A DNA stretch of 61,509 nt, filler included, from Basidioascus undulatus (Eukaryota), in NCBI GenBank assembly GCA_000826855.1. It is 7 parts of 7 records of this genome, joined end to end, with 100 filler letters (N's around TTAATTAATTAA, not from the genome) between each part and the next. Parts side by side here need not be neighbours in the genome. Positions count along the whole stretch, not along the records: positions 17,557 to 23,298 come from JTLS01001878.1; 6 more parts are not named here. One strand, 5' to 3'. The notes under the pieces were generated by a model that ran no database searches, was not told the DNA's origin, and worked only from the letters and a program-made list of their open reading frames with translations. Shown here piece after piece: positions 5,759 to 55,772 of the stretch. The stretch's first letter is position 1. The number at the start of each line of letters is the position of its first letter. The position numbers and the translations under genes were made by a program.

Positions 5759-5858
5759 NNNNNNNNNNNNNNNNNNNNNNNNNNNNNNNNNNNNNNNNNN
5801 NNTTAATTAATTAANNNNNNNNNNNNNNNNNNNNNNNNNNNNNNNNNNNNNNNNNNNN
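5759..5858. other. Artificial contig linker
   Basis: N44-TTAATTAATTAA-N44, a six-frame stop spacer. Confidence 0.99.
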
Positions 5859-11612: not shown

Positions 11613-11712
11613 NNNNNNNNNNNNNNNNNNNNNNNNNNNNNNNNNNNNNNNNNNNNTTAATTAATTAANNNNNNNNNNNNNNNNNNNNNNNNNNNNNNNN
11701 NNNNNNNNNNNN
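11613..11712. other. Artificial contig linker
   Basis: N44-TTAATTAATTAA-N44. Confidence 0.99.
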
Positions 11713-13851: not shown

Positions 13852-15243
13852 ATGTCGCCTGTCGTACACCCTCTGGAAGTCACTACCAACTTGATTTATG
13901 GCGCTCCGCACCGCCAAGCCCCCGAGACCGTTGTCGGCGCTCGAGGAGCGTAATTGGAGCTGGAGGACGGTAGGCTGTGAGTACACAACGTTGGTGTCCT
14001 CGCGATAACGCATGGTAAAGCTTCTGACGATCGAAAACAAACTCAGCACTCTCGACTGATGTGTCGGTGCGGCAGTCGCCAGCATCGGACACGGCGACCA
14101 ACGCATTGTCAATGCGGTCGACAAGCAACTCACCACCCTTCATACCACTACACTTCTCGTCTCACGGACCTTATGCGTCTTTCCCTCAGGATTCAAGAGT
14201 ACCTGCCTTGTACTGACTGCCGCAATAGGCCGCCGAAGAGCTTGGTCGGAAGCTCGTGGGTGACCGTCCGGGCGGCCTTTCGCACGCCATCTTCCTGTCA
14301 TACGGGTCGGAAGCCAACGAGTCCGTCATCAAGCTCGCTCAGCAGTACTTCTGCGAGATTGGACAGTCCGAACACGTTCACATAGTCCCTCTGCACAACA
14401 GCTACCACGGCAACTCGATCGGCTGTGTTTCGCTTACCGGCATCCCTGTGCGTCTTCATCATCCCAAATTGGCTTCCTGTTCAGAACGCGTAACTGACAG
14501 CCTCCTGCACAATGCCCTTCTGAATTATGGAGCCGTCGGAAGCACTTCGAGCCCATCCTCATCCGACCACTTCTCGCGTGTTGTGTCGCCCTGCTACACC
14601 TACCACTACAAGCTCGAGGGCGAGAGCGATGCCCTACGCCGAGTGGCTCGCGGCTGCGCTCGATGCCGAGCTCGTTCGGGTCGGACCCCACACCGTGGCA
14701 GCGTTTTTCGCAGAGACAGGCCAGCCTCCTTCTATTTCTCTAGACTGTTACACCAGGGTGACTGACCTAAATGCATATTGTTATGCAGTCGGCGGCGCAG
14801 CAGCCGGGAACCTGACGCCTGTGCCCGGCTACTTCAAGGCCATTCGGCACGTGTGACAACTGCGGCGTACGGCTCCTCCTATACGAGATCATGTGTGGCA
14901 TGGGGCGGGCGGGCAAGTTCCTTGCTTAGGAGGGGGAGGGTGAATCGACTACACGGATCGAACCCGCTGCTCTGAAGCATCCCCGCTGACGTTTCCGATA
15001 CTGCTCTAGGCGTCGATCCGGACATCCAAACAATCGGCAAGGGCCTCAATGGAGGCTATCAGCCGCTCTCAGCCATGCTCATGCAGCAGAAGATCGTCGA
15101 CGGGCTGCGCTCGGGGTCGGGCGCGTTCGCGAATTGCCAGACTTTCGAATGCCACCCCGCTGCTGCCGTTGCCGGACTCGCCGTCCTCAACATATTCGAG
15201 AGCCACAATGCCATAAACAACTGCTCTAAGCGCGGCAAGGAGG
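13852..15243 (+). pseudogene. Class-III PLP aminotransferase pseudogene
   Basis: Motifs GAAVASIGHG, GSEANESVIKLAQQY, SYHGNSIG, VAAFFAET-VGGAAAG..PGYFKAIR, EIMCGMGRAG and PDIQTIGKGLNGGYQPLS (PLP lysine). Lesions: in-frame TAA at 13951-13953, frameshifts near 14634 and 14854, DE changed to YE at the PLP-binding Asp, and no recognisable C-terminus. Confidence 0.85.
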
Positions 15244-17456: not shown

Positions 17457-17556
17457 NNNNNNNNNNNNNNNNNNNNNNNNNNNNNNNNNNNNNNNNNNNN
17501 TTAATTAATTAANNNNNNNNNNNNNNNNNNNNNNNNNNNNNNNNNNNNNNNNNNNN
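17457..17556. other. Artificial contig linker
   Basis: N44-TTAATTAATTAA-N44. Confidence 0.99.
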
Positions 17557-17559
17557 AAG

Positions 17560-17595
17560 TCGTAGTCAGATACTCTACCATTGAGCCAGCCGGCC
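17560..17595 (-). tRNA. tRNA-Arg(ACG) 5' half (positions 1-37)
   Basis: Minus strand GGCCGGC TG GCTC AATGGTA GAGT A TCTGA CT ACG A, followed by CTT and the contig end. Confidence 0.9.
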
Positions 17596-17596
17596 A

Positions 17597-17632
17597 TGAC
17601 CGACGCAGGGATCGAACCTGCAACCCCCTGAT
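17597..17632 (-). tRNA. tRNA-Arg(ACG) 3' half (positions 38-73), located upstream of the 5' half
   Basis: Minus strand A TCAGG GGGTT GCAGG TTCGATC CCTGC GTCGGTC A. It completes the acceptor stem (GGCCGGC/GTCGGTC) and anticodon stem (TCTGA/TCAGG) with the 5' half at 17560-17595. Confidence 0.88.
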
Positions 17633-19144
17633 CTCGACTCCCACTCGCTTACGCTGAGTGGTGGTCGTTGCAGGTGCTGAAAATAATATGTGTCAAAAGC
17701 GTTGCCTACACATTCATGCACAACAGCGGTAAAGATCATACTAAGAATTTATAGTCATAGTACATAATGATACCACAATCAATGATATCTGCCTGGGGAG
17801 CCCTGTAAGTTTGCCTGAGAACGGCTTGTATGCGGTGTTCAACCGAAGCGCAGCAACACGCAGCAACACGAACCGCTTTCAAGACTAAACTTACCGACAC
17901 CTCTCACATGTATAATTCGATGCATTTATTGTCACCGCAGTGTTGATAAAAGAGCAGCACACGGAGTGAACGCACTGCAACAGGCTGAGATGTCATTGAA
18001 CAGTGTCACATTTTCAGGCTTTGTTACTAGGGAGGCTTGAATCACAGCAAGTAACCTCGAGAGTAAGGGTCTCATATCCAGACCTGATCCCCCGAGACTA
18101 TCTCGACAACGTTCCTGATCTCCTCATACCCGTCTTCTTGGCTTACCGAAGTCAGGATCCCATTCGCATGCCGCATGTCTTCCTCAGCCCCCTTCGAGGC
18201 CATGGCCAACTTGACGGTTCCAGCCTGCTCCACGTTCGAAGAAAGGTCCCGAAAAAATCATACCCATCGGGTCGGCTGAGGATCGCTTCCTCAAAGCAGA
18301 AGTGAAGAGTCAGGTGGCGCAGAGGAAGGTGTCGAGGAAGATCAATGAGCGTATCACCCTGCCAGGTGTAACCGCGACATCCCACCTCGAGCTATATGAG
18401 GCGAGTCCATGTACAAATCAGTGATTCGAATTGAGCGTCATCGAAGCGGGGAAGCGAGGCAGAGTGCGGGCTGACGCGGTGAAGCGCAGCGACGTGTTTC
18501 GGACCGATCCCGAAGTACTCTTTCAGCACGAGATGATCGACTGGGCCGCAAGCAATGATGATTCCCTCGAAGAGAGATGAATCGTTATCAAAGGAATAGG
18601 AGGACATGGCGCTTGGCCGCACCGCGGCGCCGAGATGAGGGCTGGCCGTGAAGACATTCAGAAGCTTCCTCGTGCTTTGGTCCGCTATTACGAAGCTGAA
18701 GGACGGTCGACTATCATCCGAACCTGGGGTTTTTCCCTGTATGCCCGCATCTTGCCTGCAAAAAAAAGCGGCCTCACCCGCGAGCGAATGCCAGATGAGG
18801 CGGAACGCAAGGCGTTCCTGCTGGGGCAGGATGTCGAGCGTGAAGGCGAGGATGTGGGGCTCGAGCTCGAGCTGAAGAACTGGCTGTTGCAGGAGGGTGA
18901 CACATTGCTGTCAACGACAGGTGGACCAAGGTGGACATAAGCCTGGCCATTGCCGCGCCCATCCCAGCCCTGCAAGGGGAGTGTGGGCGACTCACTATCG
19001 GAGAGTCGGTCATAGCGAAGAAGGGGGACAAATTTGAGCCGCGCTGGGGTGAGTGAGGAGTTGGGATCTTGAATGTGTTTTCGCGAAAGAGCGAGATGGT
19101 GGCAAGAGGGTGACAAGAGGGCAAGTGAACGCGACGCATTCCGA

Positions 19145-19176
19145 AACGACCAACGACCAACGACCAACGACCAACG
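19145..19176. repeat. Heptanucleotide tandem repeat (AACGACC)x4.6
   Basis: aacgaccaacgaccaacgaccaacgaccaacg read directly. Confidence 0.9.
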
Positions 19177-20858
19177 CAGCGTGCATCTGGAAGGTGCATT
19201 GACCCGTAGCCCTGCATTCTGGACTACGGATGTTCTGTGCAATAGAATATATCGTAACTGCAGACTTGCCGTCCAGAGGCATCGTTGCATCTGATTCCGC
19301 CTTTCCAGCAACCTTGTTGCGCACCAAATAACCTTTCGCTCAGCCGGAAGTCTCTCCATTTTAAGTGAAGTGACTTCTGCGCCGAATCTCACCTGGACGT
19401 CTAACATCGTCAATGCGCCGCGCAGCACCCCCTGGCTTCGCACCGTCGTGGAAGGGCCGAGTCCCGCGAAGAAGGAAACCGAACGCAGGTCATCATCTGC
19501 GGCCGCTTGATTTTATCGATGATACCCGCAGGATAGAAAGGAATCTCATGCGCATGTAATGGACCTTCGCGCTCACGCTGCTGGACGAGGAGGGGAAGCC
19601 AAAGGAGCGGCAGGCGACGCTGGAGCATGCTTTTCCCGAGGTCGCGCACAGCTGCATGTTCGAGGGTATTGACCCAGTCTATGCAGCCCGCAATGCACCA
19701 GTAGTTGGGTTCCCTGAGACCTAGTACGGGTGATGCGGCGACTAGGTCCCCGAGCCTCTCGTTCTGAAGAGGGTTGGGGAAGGGACTTCGTAAGCTTGTG
19801 CGATTACTTCGGACAGGCCGGATGATTATTGGGTCTGAGGTGCTCCTTCGCAGTGTCGCAACCTACACTCTCACCATTCCTCCCGACCTCCCGCTTGACA
19901 TCCTCCAGAGCACCAAGGAGTTCATGCTGGTTTTCACCCTCCCGCCCAATATCCGACACTGCTAGCACACCTGTCCAAGGTACGGCACAAATTTACACTG
20001 CTTTCGTTGCATGCATACAGAAGAAACATCCCACAACAAGGCCATTGAGTCAGACATACTTCTCTAGTCCAGGCAACTTGTGCGTCTTTTAACGCTGCTG
20101 TAGACGTCCCAATACAAACCCCTTCGTTCTTCAGGCTGCATTTCGGCGAGGACCCACACCTGTACACAGCTCCCGGCTCCCTCACTCGCCCTATCTCGCT
20201 CGAGTGCGTCAGGACAGACGAGATACGGAGCACCGCGAAAGTCCGGCTCCCTCGGGCGGCTAGCAGGCTGGGCCTCACAGCCCCGAGCGAGGACGACAAG
20301 CGGGTGCACACGCTCAAGGCAGTCAATCAATACACCCACGATGGTTGCGCGAGGGTGATCCTGCGCTTGTACAATGATGTGAACACCGCCTCAACCCTGT
20401 CGGGCAGGCTGCACCCGTTCTTTGGGCCCGACGAACTCATCGACAATCGAAAGGCTTTCACTTTCTGCCCGTCTGCCTTACATCCTATCTGTGCTTCATG
20501 CATGCGTGTACTGAGCTATTTTCAAAGGCAAATGCGACTTCAGCCAAATATGCTGCGCTAGTCCCAGCTCACAATCTGCGCATGACGATTCGCGGGGGAT
20601 TGTTTGCGAAGAGCTCGCCGGAAATGAGCGGCATCCCGATACGCCAACGGACAGATCCGTAATGTGAGGATTCTGAGCAAGGCAACGTCGGTACGGAGCG
20701 TATTACACCCCATTCGTGCTCACCAGCACGGCCTTACCAGCGCCCCGCCCCGCCCTTTCGCGCTCGAGCAGCGCCGAGCCACTCCCCGTTCCTCGCGCAG
20801 CCGCCGTCGCGAACCGCCTAGTCAAAAGGAATCCCTATAGATACCTCGCCACCCCCCT

Positions 20859-22658
20859 CTAATGCGGCGTCGCCTCCGCCCCCATCCCTCCACCGCGCTC
20901 CATCTCCTCCACGCTAATTAGCACGCCGCTCGTCCGCAGCCGCTCGAGCTCCGCATCCCGCGGGCCGCCCTTCTCTTTCCTGTTCGATCCGCAACTCCAT
21001 CAGTTTTCTCGCACAACTCAGAGAGAAGCGGAGAGAAGAGAAGTGGGGACGAACGCTAGCAAGTCTACTACACCACGCAGCACTTCGCCCGCCCCCCACT
21101 CGACCTTCTCCGCGCCGTCGAGGTCATCCGCGCGTGTGGGGCCGACGTTGAGGAGCAGGACGGGCTTTTTGGATTCTACTGCTTGTTTTACTAGTCTGTG
21201 TGCGGGTAGAGCGCGCGGGCGTCAGCTGCCTGATGAGGGAGAGAAAAAAGAAGAGAGGGAAATGAGGAAGAACGCACCGAAAAGCAGAGTACGTAGCTAG
21301 ACTAGACCCAACGACGAGCACGCGCTCCGCTTGATCGACCATCTCTATGCTCCTCCCCTTCTGTTCCTCTACCCACCCTCCTCTAAATCAGCCTATCCCC
21401 CTCTCTCTCCCTCTCCTCCCGAAACGCACCGCTCAGACTTTGCCCAAAGAACACCACATCCGGCTTCCACCACGCGCCGCTCTGTCCCCTCAACCCCTCC
21501 GGCTCGGGAAACTGGAACGCAGCGTAGTTGAGCCCGCCAGGGAGCTCGACGTCCCCGTCCGGGTTCGTCTTGAACGTGGTGCGCGAGGCGAGGAAGTCGG
21601 CCCATGCGGGGTTGAGGGAGGCAAGCTGCGACTGGAAGGTGCTGCGTAGGAGGCGGGGGTAGGTCGGGTGGGAGGGGACGTGCACGTACTGGGTAGGAGG
21701 CGGAGGAGGGTGAGTGGGTGGAGATTGGGGAGAGGGGGGGGACGCACGTGCAGGGTGCCGTGTAGCTCGAGAATTGTGGAGTCGGGGGAGAGCGCGGAGG
21801 GAGTCGCTTTGTGGTGCAGGCGGTCGACGTTCTGCTTGCGCAAGGGCGGGATGATAAGCCGACCATGGGAAAGTAGGGAGACGCGAGGTTGGTAATGCAC
21901 CTGTGTTATCAACCCGTCCACCAAGCCGAGGTGCTGCAGCGCCGCTATAGAGAAGTGTGTGCGGTTGGGCTGCGCGCGCTGGACGGGCGCGTAGCCGAAG
22001 AAGGATCGGGCCCCTGTACGAGCATACAGTATGAGTTAAGCAACAGTATTGGTATATTGAGGAGATGCTGACAGTATCGTTGCCGGAAACGGAAGCCTTC
22101 TTTTGATTCTTCGGCGAACTGGCGGGGTGGCAGGGTGAGGGAGCAGGAAAGCTGCGGGAGAGAAGGGAGACGCACCTCGTGGTAGAAGATAGGGCGATAC
22201 TTCTTATGCAGCTCGTAGTGCCCTGCTCATTCCTACATTCAGCATTCCCCAAGTATGTGATGCCCAGAGCGCACTCCCACCTTGTTTCCCCCGATACGCA
22301 CGAATCCCACTGCCTCCCTCTCATCAGCCTCCCTCTCTCCCTTCATCACCTCTCCCACTCACCTCTCCACCGACACACCCGCCCCAGTAATCACAAGCGT
22401 CCCTCCCCGTGCCTCCTCCCCGCCGCCCTTGCCGCCCGTCAGAAACGCGGCGACGCGCGCGATGGCGGTGGGGAGGGTGTAGTTGTTGGGCGCGGCGGGC
22501 CGCTTGGGCGTCGGGATCGAGGGAATCTGGAGCCGCCTGCGCGGGAGCCGCTTCAGCGCTGTGGTTGCTGGTGCGGAGGAGGTGGATGCCATAGGAGGAT
22601 TGCGGGTGGCGGTGGGAGGAGAGGGTGTAAGGGAAGAGAGAAGACGCGTCGGGTGCAT
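20859..22658 (-). CDS. NAD+-dependent sirtuin, SIRT4-like (class II); possible mitochondrial presequence
   Basis: Spliced motifs ITGAGVSV..SGIRAYRG, YRPIFYHE, RQRY-WARSFFGY..AQPNRTH, GLITQ-NVDRLHHKA, ELHGTLH, LNPAW..NPDGDVEL, KPDVVFFG, VLVVGSSLATYSAFR-LVK and LLNVGPTRAD. Start is ATG 22658 (MHPTRLLSSL) or 22592; last exon inferred. Confidence 0.92.
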
Positions 22659-22925
22659 CAGGGCCCGACGATCGGCAGGCACTCTATCTGGCTTCTTTCC
22701 GTCTGATGTCCGCGGATGGTTTGGTCATCTCGCTGATTTCGTCACTTTCGCCCTCCACCTGGCACCGCTGCAAGCGAGCGAGCACCAACAACCACCTCCC
22801 TCCAGCTCGCTGCTTGTTCCCCAACGCCCATGCTCCCCCGCCTGCGCCTCCTCTCGCAGCACCTCCCCCGCACAACCACCCGAACTCTCCAGCACCCCCT
22901 CCGCGCCTTCTCTCAGTCCGCAATC

Positions 22926-23298
22926 ATGTCCGCTGCTGGCAACGCCGCGCGCGAGACCTCCGGGTTCAAGTTCAGTAGGTTGGCACGCGGGAGGCGGTGA
23001 TTGGCATACTTCCTTTGGGGGACGCTGGGGGGACAGGACGCTGATGTGTGGTGGTACGCGGCGGATAAGACCACACGATGCTCCGCATTAAAGACCCGAA
23101 GAAGAGTCTGGCGTTCTACCAGGATGTCATCGGTGCGTCTTCCTGCCATCTCATGCTGAGGTCCGGCGAGGCTGATATCCCACCGAACAGGCATGGAGCT
23201 GTTCGTCGCATACCAGTTCCCTTACCTAATCCACCTCTGACGATCCGGGACAAACGCACAGGATTGACAAGCACGACGGCGGCGACTTCACCCTTGTC
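22926..23298 (+). CDS. GLO1: Glyoxalase I (lactoylglutathione lyase), 5' part
   Basis: Spliced MSAAGNAARETSGFKF-NHTMLRIKDPKKSLAFYQDVI-GMEL-IDKHDGGDFTL, the GLO1 N-terminal signature. Truncated by the contig end. Confidence 0.9.
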
Positions 23299-23398
23299 NN
23301 NNNNNNNNNNNNNNNNNNNNNNNNNNNNNNNNNNNNNNNNNNTTAATTAATTAANNNNNNNNNNNNNNNNNNNNNNNNNNNNNNNNNNNNNNNNNNNN
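23299..23398. other. Artificial contig linker
   Basis: N44-TTAATTAATTAA-N44. Confidence 0.99.
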
Positions 23399-29137: not shown

Positions 29138-29237
29138 NNNNNNNNNNNNNNNNNNNNNNNNNNNNNNNNNNNNNNNNNNNNTTAATTAATTAANNNNNNN
29201 NNNNNNNNNNNNNNNNNNNNNNNNNNNNNNNNNNNNN
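29138..29237. other. Artificial contig linker
   Basis: N44-TTAATTAATTAA-N44. Confidence 0.99.
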
Positions 29238-46221: not shown

Positions 46222-52219
<5,998 letters not shown>

Positions 52220-55200
52220 TTAGTGAGAAAGGCGGTCGGTGTGAGTCGAGCGCTGCCCTGCCCTGTCTTCTGCTTGCGCTCGGCCCGAAGAGCGAGTTAA
52301 AGTCAACAAGCCTCTTTTCGCCAAGGCACATCGGCCGATAGCTTCCGCGTCCACACCGGTCAACTGTCTGCGTTTTATTTCAACACTTTTGCATAGTTAT
52401 CAGCGCATTATCAATGCATTCTCCTTCGCTGTAACCCAGTCGTTTCAACACCATGCACACCTTTCACAGCGAACACAGTCCCATTGGCCTAACTCTGTCC
52501 ATCACGGCTCAACGGATGCTTCCCACCCCGATCACTGGAACCTCGCGGCCCGGAGACGGCCATCGCCAGCCCACGACGGTAGCAAGTGGGTGCAAGACCG
52601 ATCCGCAGGTGCTGATAAACGTGGGAGCGTGATCGTGATCTGCCTCTCAGGCTGACTGATGAGTTCCGTCGCTGCTCCTGCCGCTGCGATTGGGACCCGC
52701 TGCGTGAACCCGGATGCATGCGTCTTGGAAAAAAATTGCGTTTCCTATTTTAGCAAGAGACGGAAAGAGACGGGAACGGTATGCGCATGGGAGGGGTACT
52801 CGGTAGCATCGTGATCCAAGGTCACTGAGGTCGCCCACCGCACCGACCAACTCAGATCAACTCAGCTTCGGCTTCACGAAGCAAGTGCAAACCGGGACGT
52901 AGGTGCTCATGGATGAAGAGGCAGATGCAGGTCTGCTCTGACCTGAAAGGGTCCCTGGTGAAACTAGCCGGTCATTCACCTCGAAGTAGGCAGGCTGGCG
53001 CAGGCCCAACCAGCCCATCGCGAGGGCTGGTTTACCACGCCCGATCCACAATCGTTTCTAAGAAAATAGGGTTTCATATTGCAGATGGAAATGTGGGTGG
53101 TACGGCAGCCCGCCTGTATCTATTGTGGACGAAAGGGCGTTTGAGCCGGTTACATTCAAAAAGACGGTGTGGTCTCTGTAGCCGCCGAACAACGATGGTC
53201 AAGGCTATACACTCTTGACCAAACCTAGTAATAATAAAGGACATAAATAAGCTCAAAGATGTCGAGCTGGGCACTGACTGAACTTGTTGTCCGTATCCGA
53301 GAGACTGGTCAAGTTGGGTTCGGCGAAGCATCCAAGGCGACTCTGCTAATCTGCTGCACGCAGAACCGGCTCGTATTGCAGGAAGAACCTCCCGAGCTCT
53401 GGTGAAGCTTGGATTCCGTCTTTCCCTCATCCACCATCCAGCGCACACGGCACTTCAGAAGTGCCAGCCCGCTTCCGGGGCTGGGTCCTCCATGAGAGAC
53501 TGAGCGCGCCTGCTCACTGTACGAGCAGGAATCGACAACACTTTTACCAAATTAAAAAGCACACGAAGAGGCACAAAGGTTATACGATAGCTTTCGAGAG
53601 GGTGATCAAGTCAGATCATGCGTCCTAGACTACTATCCTGAAGGCTTTTCCCCATCTCTCAACAGCGAGCAGACCTTCCTGTTCGGAAAGAGTCCGAAAC
53701 CCCTCAGTTCACATGCAGCCTTCTTTAAGGTCACACAGAGCACACAGCACTTCAGAACTGGCAGTTCCCTTCCGGGGCTGGGTCGTCCCTGTTCACGTAT
53801 CTCAGGGCCCAAAGCAAGAATGACAATAATCTCTGTCAAATTCGTTGTATCCATAGAGCCCCATGTTTCTCAGGTCCTAAGTGGAGTAAGATGCAGACAG
53901 TACCGATCCAGAGAAACTGGTAACCCGCTGGCTCACCAGACATTCCAGAGACGGCATTCGATGGGAACTGTTGAGCGCAGCGATGTGGCTCATGCATCCC
54001 GCTTTAACAATCACGTTTCTCCCCCACGCACTTGTATCTAAAGGCAAACCGTTTTCTTCCCGAAGGGACGACGGTCAAGATGAAGCGAAGCGATAGAGCA
54101 ATGGGCTGCACCCTGAACTTGTGGGACCTTCGCACTGGCACCTGTCCCCAATCCTTCGGGCTTGACAAACGTGGAGAGGGTTTCACACGTGGTCATGAGG
54201 TCATTTTGAAGCCCTTTCTTTTGACGTACATGGTCTTTGCATGGTCACGAGCGTGCTTGCACGTTGGTCTTTCACGTTTCGATTCGCAGTTGCGGATGCT
54301 TGTACCATTGGGGGTGCCTGTCCAGCTAATGGCTCACGCAACAACATTGCGTAGAGTGAACAAGCGGACCAAATGCCGAATGGACGTTCAAGAAGTATGC
54401 ATGTCTGTTTCGCATACTTTTGAGCAGCAAACTTCCCGTTGATAAGCAGGCCAACCCGAAGTAGATAGCAGCAAGAGTGTCTTTTGGCCCTACTCGACCC
54501 GTGACGGACGGTCCGCTCGGGTTGTCCCACTGATCAGGGAGCTCTAGTCGAAGCCATCGAAGCTCTTTGAAAACCCCGAGTTGAGACAGTGTCTCCCAAT
54601 TGGCGACCCGAAAGACAATCCCAGACGAGTGACAGAGTGAGCGTTGTGGACGACCAGAGCACCAATGGTTGCAGGCAAAGCGACACTGCTGTATTCGATC
54701 GAGACGATCTCGAGGTTGCGAGTATACTGCTTAGGGTTCTGGATGAGATAACTCCAGAGGCACTGCCGAACTCGAGGGATCGAATGTAACGAGCAGGTCG
54801 AAGCCCTGCGAGGTCCCGCGCGAGGAGATGGCGTTCGAAAGCTCGTTCCCCTCCGTACCGGTGCGGCGGTAGCGATGAGGCTCCGATAGTTTTTACAAAA
54901 CTCATGATATATCAATGAGCACCCCTAGTGGCTCAAGCATGGAGAACGACTTACGTTCCAAGCTCTGCAGACTAGCGAAAGGGCGGTAGCCTGCCCTAAG
55001 TCCATGCCTATCGTGCCACACGCTTTCGTAACTTCATAAGGCTCCTGCAAAATTTCATATCCTTGTAATGTGTGCTTGAAAATCAACGAGGGATACGGAG
55101 TTCCACCGCTCCTTTGCTGCTATGCACGCATGGACGCTGCGAGTGGGCGGCAAAAGGAGGGAACGCCGACCCACAACGTTGAGAAGTAAGGATAAGGCTA

Positions 55201-55672: not shown

Positions 55673-55772
55673 NNNNNNNNNNNNNNNNNNNNNNNNNNNN
55701 NNNNNNNNNNNNNNNNTTAATTAATTAANNNNNNNNNNNNNNNNNNNNNNNNNNNNNNNNNNNNNNNNNNNN
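55673..55772. other. Artificial contig linker
   Basis: N44-TTAATTAATTAA-N44. Confidence 0.99.

Follow-up and report, generated by a model that had tools for sequence, protein, structure and literature searches.

Permuted tRNA genes, in which the tRNA's 3' half is encoded ahead of its 5' half, have been viewed as an oddity shared by a few single-celled algae, a nucleomorph and some archaea (PMC3978253; PMC13578239), and a 2026 review still lists no host for them beyond certain unicellular algae and archaea (PMC13578239). They have been linked to TFIIIC-independent transcription from upstream promoters and to endonucleases that read a bulge-helix-bulge (BHB) (PMC3978253; PMC13578239). The closest described systems are the type II genes of algae (Ostreococcus, Micromonas and Cyanidioschyzon merolae), for which we follow the account that the 2014 review by Soma gives of Soma et al. 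2007 and Maruyama et al. 2010 (PMC3978253). Here, we analyse a stretch of 61,509 nucleotides, filler included, from the basidiomycete Basidioascus undulatus (GenBank assembly GCA_000826855.1), hereafter the window. One of its contigs (JTLS01001878.1, at 17557-23298) carries the two halves of a tRNA-Arg(ACG) in reversed order, and a preliminary description of this DNA had proposed that they form a circularly permuted gene. The absence of an upstream 5' exon, the recurrence of the same junction at other loci and the T-runs that follow the 5' half there all support that proposal. We consider it probable that the locus is a member of a multi-copy and functional family of type II (37/38) permuted nuclear tRNA-Arg(ACG) genes in this fungus.

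The locus shares many traits with the algal type II genes as that review describes them (PMC3978253): a 3' half placed before the 5' half on one strand, a junction between positions 37 and 38, a short intervening sequence between positions 73 and 1, no encoded CCA, an upstream AT-rich or TATA-like box, a predicted pairing of leader and trailer around the cut sites, and a stretch of T downstream (seen here in the paralogues). It differs from them in its host, a basidiomycete fungus and hence an opisthokont, and in its identity, since Arg(ACG) is absent from the review's table. It also differs in the length of the intervening sequence, which is 1 nt here and 5-74 bp in the eukaryotic cases, and in its apparently many copies, whereas the algal genes are listed as single except for two Gly(CCC) genes (PMC3978253). 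Fungi are, moreover, expected to use TFIIIC, with an A box followed by a B box, and a tRNA splicing endonuclease (Sen) of the ruler type. The permuted tRNA-Tyr(GTA) gene of Thermofilum pendens (Chan, Cozen and Lowe 2011, via PMC3978253) also has an intervening sequence of 1 nt, but it belongs to an archaeon (a crenarchaeon), has its junction at 59/60, encodes the CCA and holds an extra intron at 37/38 (PMC3978253). Ordinary fungal tRNA genes with an intron at 37/38 are cut at the same sites and pair their anticodon region with the sequence that is removed. In the present locus, in contrast, the order of the exons is reversed, leader and trailer are what would be removed, and ligation would yield a circle. 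Such an ordinary gene, presumably an Arg(ACG) gene with its intron, is the probable ancestor of the permuted one. The preliminary description knew of no fungal case, and we found none in the searchable full-text literature, a body of text that leaves out most subscription journals and makes this statement provisional.

The window consists of seven contigs, of which one measures 26.4 kb and the other six about 5.74 kb each, separated by spacers of the form N44-TTAATTAATTAA-N44 at 5759-5858, 11613-11712, 17457-17556, 23299-23398, 29138-29237 and 55673-55772; no inference is possible across these joins. The tRNA-Arg(ACG) element lies at the low-coordinate end of the 5.7-kb contig 17557-23298, and it and all its parts are on the minus strand. 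Position 17557 is a genuine contig end, because the N-run of a spacer follows it. Read from upstream, the sequence shows a leader ending in GAGTCGAG (up to 17633) and then the 3' half, i.e., 36 nt for positions 38-73 (17632-17597), which comprises the 3' strand of the anticodon stem, the variable loop, the T arm, the 3' strand of the acceptor stem and the discriminator A73. A single T (17596) separates A73 from G1 and constitutes the whole intervening sequence, as judged from the sequence and the cloverleaf. The 5' half follows with 36 nt for positions 1-37 (17595-17560): the 5' strand of the acceptor stem, the D arm, the 5' strand of the anticodon stem, and C32 U33 A34 C35 G36 A37, with the anticodon ACG at 17561-17563. 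Both halves are delimited by the sequence, by the cloverleaf that ARAGORN draws once they are rejoined and by the swap control given below. The trailer is reduced to CTT (17557-17559) by the contig end, and the predicted 5' cleavage site lies between A37 and the C of this trailer. This succession of 3' half, T, 5' half and contig end is the one quoted in the preliminary description, whose sequence was found in place. The internal boxes come in the reverse of the usual order. A motif scan places a B-box-like GGTTCGATCC in the T stem and loop (17609-17618), upstream of an A-box-like TGGCTCAATGGTAGAG that covers positions 8-24 in the D arm of the cloverleaf (17573-17588). No CCA is encoded at the locus.

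In its native order, the locus gave no tRNA call with ARAGORN, nor did it when introns were allowed. Once the halves had been rejoined by a script, the same program called a tRNA-Arg(acg) of 72 nt with an acceptor stem of 7 bp (including two G-U pairs), a D stem of 4 bp, an anticodon stem of 5 bp and a T stem of 5 bp, which confirms that the two 36-nt halves make up one complete cloverleaf split at 37/38, as had been claimed. Read by eye, this cloverleaf keeps U8, G18 G19, U33, T54-T55-C56, A58 and G53-C61. The rejoined tRNA body shows no pseudogene-like decay. The exchange of halves (36+1+36) was repeated at 120,808 N-free positions on both strands. It produced 12 ARAGORN calls, all at most 3 nt from the locus, and no call elsewhere in the window; the permuted arrangement is therefore not a product of chance. 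Likewise, the 21-nt word that spans the junction occurs once in the window and matched in none of 100 shuffles. The B-box motif has five matches in the window, and the one at the tRNA-Arg(ACG) locus is the only one in a tRNA context. Another, at 14963, was tried as a permuted tRNA and rejected, its surroundings looking like ordinary non-tRNA sequence.

An ordinary intron-containing gene has a 5' exon upstream of its intron and 3' exon, and we found no such arrangement at the locus. A blastn-short search of the element against the whole window returned only the element itself (the next best match has 17 nt, E 0.1), and when the 168 nt upstream were aligned locally to the 5' half, the score was 12, a value that 1440 of 2000 shuffles equal or exceed. 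These results agree with the earlier statement that no 5' half precedes the 3' half, for the 5.7-kb contig. They speak against the suggestion that an upstream ACGA followed by a hairpin is the residue of a 5' exon; we rejected this candidate as a chance similarity.

We then turned to public reads of three DNA-type runs from two studies (X1, X2 and X3), from which contigs of 31-letter words were built and aligned to 17557-18600. A search for public runs containing the contig listed no RNA run. X1 and X2 contain 0.99 of the words of the contig and may be the source of the assembly, which would make them dependent on the same data; X3 and X2 derive from one sample. The contigs that align number 61 of 24,453 in X1, 61 of 16,194 in X2 and 4 of 36,764 in X3. 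The 61 of X1 fall into 28 with at least 99% identity, 19 with 95-99% and 14 with 90-95%. Nearly all aligned contigs are confined to 17557-17661, and beyond 17662 the depth in X1 drops to the single-copy value of 19. One contig of 4,220 nt (X1) and one of 18,542 nt (X2) cross the junction, each showing 5 differences and no gaps over 17560-17635. Short contigs over 17571/17574-17626, with 1 difference, have word depths of 175 and 298 in X1, where the flank has 19, and of 473 in X2. The junction of 3' half, T and 5' half is real DNA present at several loci, not an assembly chimera, because contigs cross it and the short ones are far deeper than the single-copy flank. The preliminary description had proposed to look for copies of the junction and for reads spanning it, and contigs from all three runs do cross it, with differing flanks. 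The summed word depth over the element reaches 75-180 times that of the single-copy flank in X1, a figure that should not be read as a copy number; contigs of this kind have overlaps of 30 letters. Judging by how many distinct flanks there are and how deep the short contigs lie, we estimate that the permuted unit occurs at ten to a few tens of loci.

The flanks of these paralogues are known, from one analysis, as contig coordinates and 30-letter consensus strings of the loose ends. Three distinct downstream flanks are listed, which leave the window sequence at 17558 in 2 contigs, at 17560 in 3 contigs (agreement 0.67) and, in X3, at 17560 in 1 contig. All three carry runs of A on the plus strand (6, 13 and 5 letters), i.e., T6, T13 and T5 on the tRNA strand. 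These T-runs begin 0-3 nt after A37, with the T6 coming after ACGACTG, and by their sequence they look like terminators of RNA polymerase III (Pol III). A T-run at this place would stop Pol III and is incompatible with the beginning of a tRNA intron. The remainder of the downstream loose ends (median length 255) matches nothing in the aligned stretch; therefore, no 3' half follows nearby in the listed paralogues. Upstream, eight flanks are listed. They diverge from the window at 17627 (one), at 17645 (one) and at 17651-17656 (six), and they differ from each other. Most paralogues thus share about 19-24 nt of leader (13-24 nt when all divergences at 17645-17656 are counted) before their own flank begins, which is what a requirement for the leader in processing would predict. 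In five of the eight, the first 12 letters on the plus strand hold GGTGA, followed by A/T-rich sequence, the clearest case having GAAAATAAT immediately after GGTG. In the window copy, this word is found about 15 nt further out than in the paralogues, which suggests a small insertion in its leader. Taken together, the repeated unit appears to consist of an AT-rich box, a short leader, the 3' half, T, the 5' half and a T-run. There may be ordinary colinear copies among 13 further loose ends and 107 further pieces.

Three other contigs merit description. An X3 contig of 874 nt (record 17) matches 17557-17589 without any difference and extends 841 nt beyond the contig end. Another contig of X3 (record 20), of 93 letters, has identical first and last 30 letters and amounts to a self-closing path of 63 letters (17575-17637) in which 5 nt of leader are followed by the 3' half, the T and 21 nt from the beginning of the 5' half, after which the leader recurs. 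A deletion derivative, a tandem mini-repeat and an artefact of the graph are possible readings. Finally, one contig of X1 (depth 18.3) links 17660 to 18288, omitting 627 bases, and shows 10 differences from the window over 18288-18371; it looks like a diverged duplicate of the upstream flank of the locus with an indel of 627 bp.

The region upstream of the halves has features that could serve transcription and processing. The AT-rich tract reported earlier is indeed present: a TATA-like box, CATATTATTTT, lies at 17680-17690 on the minus strand, 48-58 nt upstream of the 3' half, and is a candidate upstream promoter element for Pol III. Between this box and the 3' half, a leader hairpin (CCACUC...GAGUGG, 17641-17661) is predicted both in the minimum free energy (MFE) fold and in the fold constrained to the cloverleaf. 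The next segment of the leader, GAGUCGAG (17633-17640), is predicted to pair with C32-A37 and the trailer, with the 3' cleavage site between G-1 and A38. The energy of this leader-trailer duplex is -7.3 kcal/mol, which only 33 of 5000 random 12-mers from the same contig reach; the helix, drawn with a known trailer of only 3 nt, is better than 99.3% of them, and the pairing put forward in the preliminary description is well supported. For the 107 nt of 17663-17557 the MFE is -43.8 kcal/mol (z = -2.85), a stability that 3 of 200 shuffles match. Enforcing the cloverleaf gives -43.0 kcal/mol, i.e., 0.8 above the MFE, with the leader-trailer helix retained: this constrained fold contains the leader hairpin, the tRNA body and the helix of GAGUCGAG with C32-A37 plus CUU. 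In the predicted folds, a tetraloop of C72-A73-U-G1 closes an acceptor stem of 6 bp. A canonical BHB can also be drawn, with C32:G-3, U33xC-4, A34:U-5 and C35:G-6 between the bulges G36-A37-C+1 and A-2-G-1-A38. The yeast-type endonuclease requires position 32 to pair with the removed sequence, and in the predicted folds this pair is available, as C32 can pair with either G-3 or G-1.

These elements suggest a route of maturation. Pol III would start downstream of the AT-rich box and stop at the T-run just behind the 5' half, producing a transcript in the order leader, 3' half, U, 5' half and trailer. The halves would fold into a normal tRNA body with the acceptor stem capped by the predicted tetraloop, and the end of the leader would pair with C32-A37 and the trailer, making the kind of contact with the anticodon loop that introns make. 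Sen would cleave after A37 and before A38, and a ligase of the Trl1 type would seal A37 to A38 to give a circle of 73 nt. RNase P would open this circle 5' of G1, the single U would be trimmed and CCA added, and A34 would be deaminated to inosine as the last step. The alternative order, with RNase P acting first, would serve equally, through a two-piece intermediate held together by its stems. Fungi use a Trl1-type ligase, and most Basidiomycota are reported to be without RtcB (PMC3400036). In budding yeast, according to the Soma review, the endonuclease resides on mitochondria and the processing of the ends is nuclear (PMC3978253).

Several points weigh against a functional family of permuted genes. 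Expression and the circular intermediate are predicted from DNA, and the terminator of this very locus would lie outside the contig, which stops after CTT. The B box stands upstream of the A box, the reverse of the order in TFIIIC-dependent fungal tRNA genes. Among the genes in Table 1 of the Soma review, an intervening sequence of 1 nt is otherwise found only in one archaeal gene (PMC3978253). The canonical BHB has a U-C mismatch in its central helix of 4 bp, and the MFE fold is not a canonical BHB but a nearly continuous helix with two 1-nt bulges. On the side of the paralogues, the evidence consists of coordinates and 30-letter consensus strings, some with an agreement of only 0.58-0.67, and two of the three runs, X1 and X2, possibly hold the same data as the assembly of the window. 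Finally, the summed depth would be high for one tRNA family and suits a repeat element equally well.

This last point leads to the most serious alternative, which we regard as clearly the less probable, yet worth weighing: a dispersed family of repeats or pseudogenes of about 100 nt, derived from a permuted or circularised tRNA-Arg, that supplies no functional tRNA. Such a family might be transcribed by Pol III and spread by reverse transcription in the manner of a short interspersed element (SINE), with tRNA-Arg(ICG) made from ordinary genes elsewhere. It would account for a unit found with differing flanks in many contigs at such a depth, and for a shared part that begins at a fixed leader position and extends to the T-run, as copies of a Pol III transcript would; the self-closing X3 contig (93 letters, a path of 63) hints that there are rearranged derivatives. 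Yet a decaying repeat is not what the sequences look like: the cloverleaf of the window copy is flawless and keeps the nucleotides of the conserved tertiary contacts, the 28 of 61 contigs of X1 with at least 99% identity to it imply little decay, and the pairing of leader and trailer is retained. Nor do the listed flanks show a poly(A) or LINE-like tail. Compared with a classical tRNA-derived SINE, the unit is unlike it in having the B box before the A box and, in the paralogues, a T-run as its tail.

An ordinary arrangement, two intron-containing tRNA-Arg(ACG) genes in tandem, 1 nt apart, the first truncated at its 5' end and the second cut by the contig end, had been called a strong alternative in the preliminary description. 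We now consider it improbable. The leader would then be the 3' end of an intron and CTT the start of another, and it is true that, like a tRNA intron, the leader pairs with the anticodon region, that green algae have tandem repeats of intron-containing tRNA genes, which are seen as precursors of permuted genes (PMC3978253), and that the contig stops 3 nt past A37, which leaves room for a downstream intron and 3' exon and keeps this alternative alive. The searches by blastn-short and local alignment found, however, no remnant of a 5' exon upstream. In the listed paralogues, the runs of T5-T13 within 0-3 nt of A37 would end Pol III transcription inside the supposed intron, and the downstream loose ends have no 3' half nearby. 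Even if the tandem were real, its upstream unit could not yield a tRNA by the normal route.

It is most improbable that the element encodes a tRNA-like RNA without a role in decoding, with the topology of YrlA or Y RNAs (a T arm, a closed acceptor-like hairpin and a D arm on a stem). YrlA (RF02553) shares these three parts with the element and is its sole match in Rfam (17553-17641, 31.2 bits, E 1.1e-4), but this score is far under the gathering score of 69, and such a match follows from a tRNA-like topology. YrlA is a bacterial family without an anticodon loop, whereas in the element the anticodon stem retains its two strands and the C-U-A-C-G-A/A loop is complete and split exactly at 37/38. 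The least credible reading, a chimeric joining by the assembler of two tRNA-Arg gene copies at a repeat, would fit the position of the element at a contig end inside repeated sequence but is contradicted by the read-built contigs of three runs and two studies that cross the junction, some of them deep and others 4-18 kb long.

Returning to the permuted, functional family as the preferred reading, a broader claim can be made tentatively, and we hold it to be possible rather than probable: that the whole tRNA-Arg(ACG) family of this basidiomycete lineage, with at least 10 loci, is permuted with a 1-nt linker, and that the major arginine decoder depends entirely on a circular RNA intermediate for its production by the ordinary fungal Sen, Trl1 and RNase P. 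It would be the first such case in fungi or in any opisthokont, and the first permuted tRNA gene to have multiplied into a family; retroposed copies of its Pol III transcript are a possible source of the new members. A permuted family in a fungus would mean that opisthokont enzymes (the ruler-type Sen complex, Trl1 and RNase P) are able to process permuted tRNA genes, that a reversed order of B and then A box is workable for fungal Pol III transcription, and that the permuted layout can emerge and multiply independently. Standard tRNA finders would score tRNA-Arg(ACG) as missing in such genomes, as ARAGORN misses the locus of the window. Fungi being genetically tractable, the formation of the circle, the removal of the 1-nt linker and the subcellular order of the steps would become testable.

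The neighbouring sequence supports the assignment of the element to the nuclear DNA of a basidiomycete. The window holds a gene for the pentafunctional AROM protein of the shikimate pathway (46290-52379, minus strand), in several open reading frames (ORFs) split by short introns or changes of frame. Its closest named full-length relative is that of Wallemia mellicola (59% identity), followed by those of many Agaricomycetes (47-54%), and shorter database fragments agree with this. The tRNA-bearing contig has a GC content of 0.58, against 0.57-0.60 in the others, and its tetranucleotide profile correlates with that of the AROM contig at 0.87, the other five contigs giving 0.87-0.92. It also carries an exon-like piece (21386-21700, minus strand) with weak similarity to sirtuins (PF02146); the only named protein that it matches is fungal, from an ascomycete (35% identity, E 1e-6). 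A Pfam scan of the 11 ORFs of this contig, the sirtuin-like piece included, returned no family. We take the element to be basidiomycete nuclear DNA because of the kinship of AROM, the matching GC content and tetranucleotides, and the fungal sirtuin-like hit.

Two further observations concern tRNA genes and tRNA-like modules at large. A scan of metagenomes with the pattern GGTTCGATCC-N20-24-GCTCAATGGTAGAG gave 16 loci, none of which resembles the fungal element; judged by eye, most of them consist of colinear tRNA genes separated by a few nt. Two of them (L007, 401-448, and L013, 401-446, both on the minus strand) show a T arm, a closed hairpin and a D arm, with no anticodon arm visible, and look like YrlA-type modules or permuted tRNA-like ones lacking the anticodon. 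Within the window, the only other tRNA gene is a colinear and intron-less tRNA-Val(AAC) at 14-86 on the plus strand, beginning 13 nt into the first contig and followed by ATTTGTATTTTG. Normal tRNA genes therefore exist in this genome, also at the ends of contigs.

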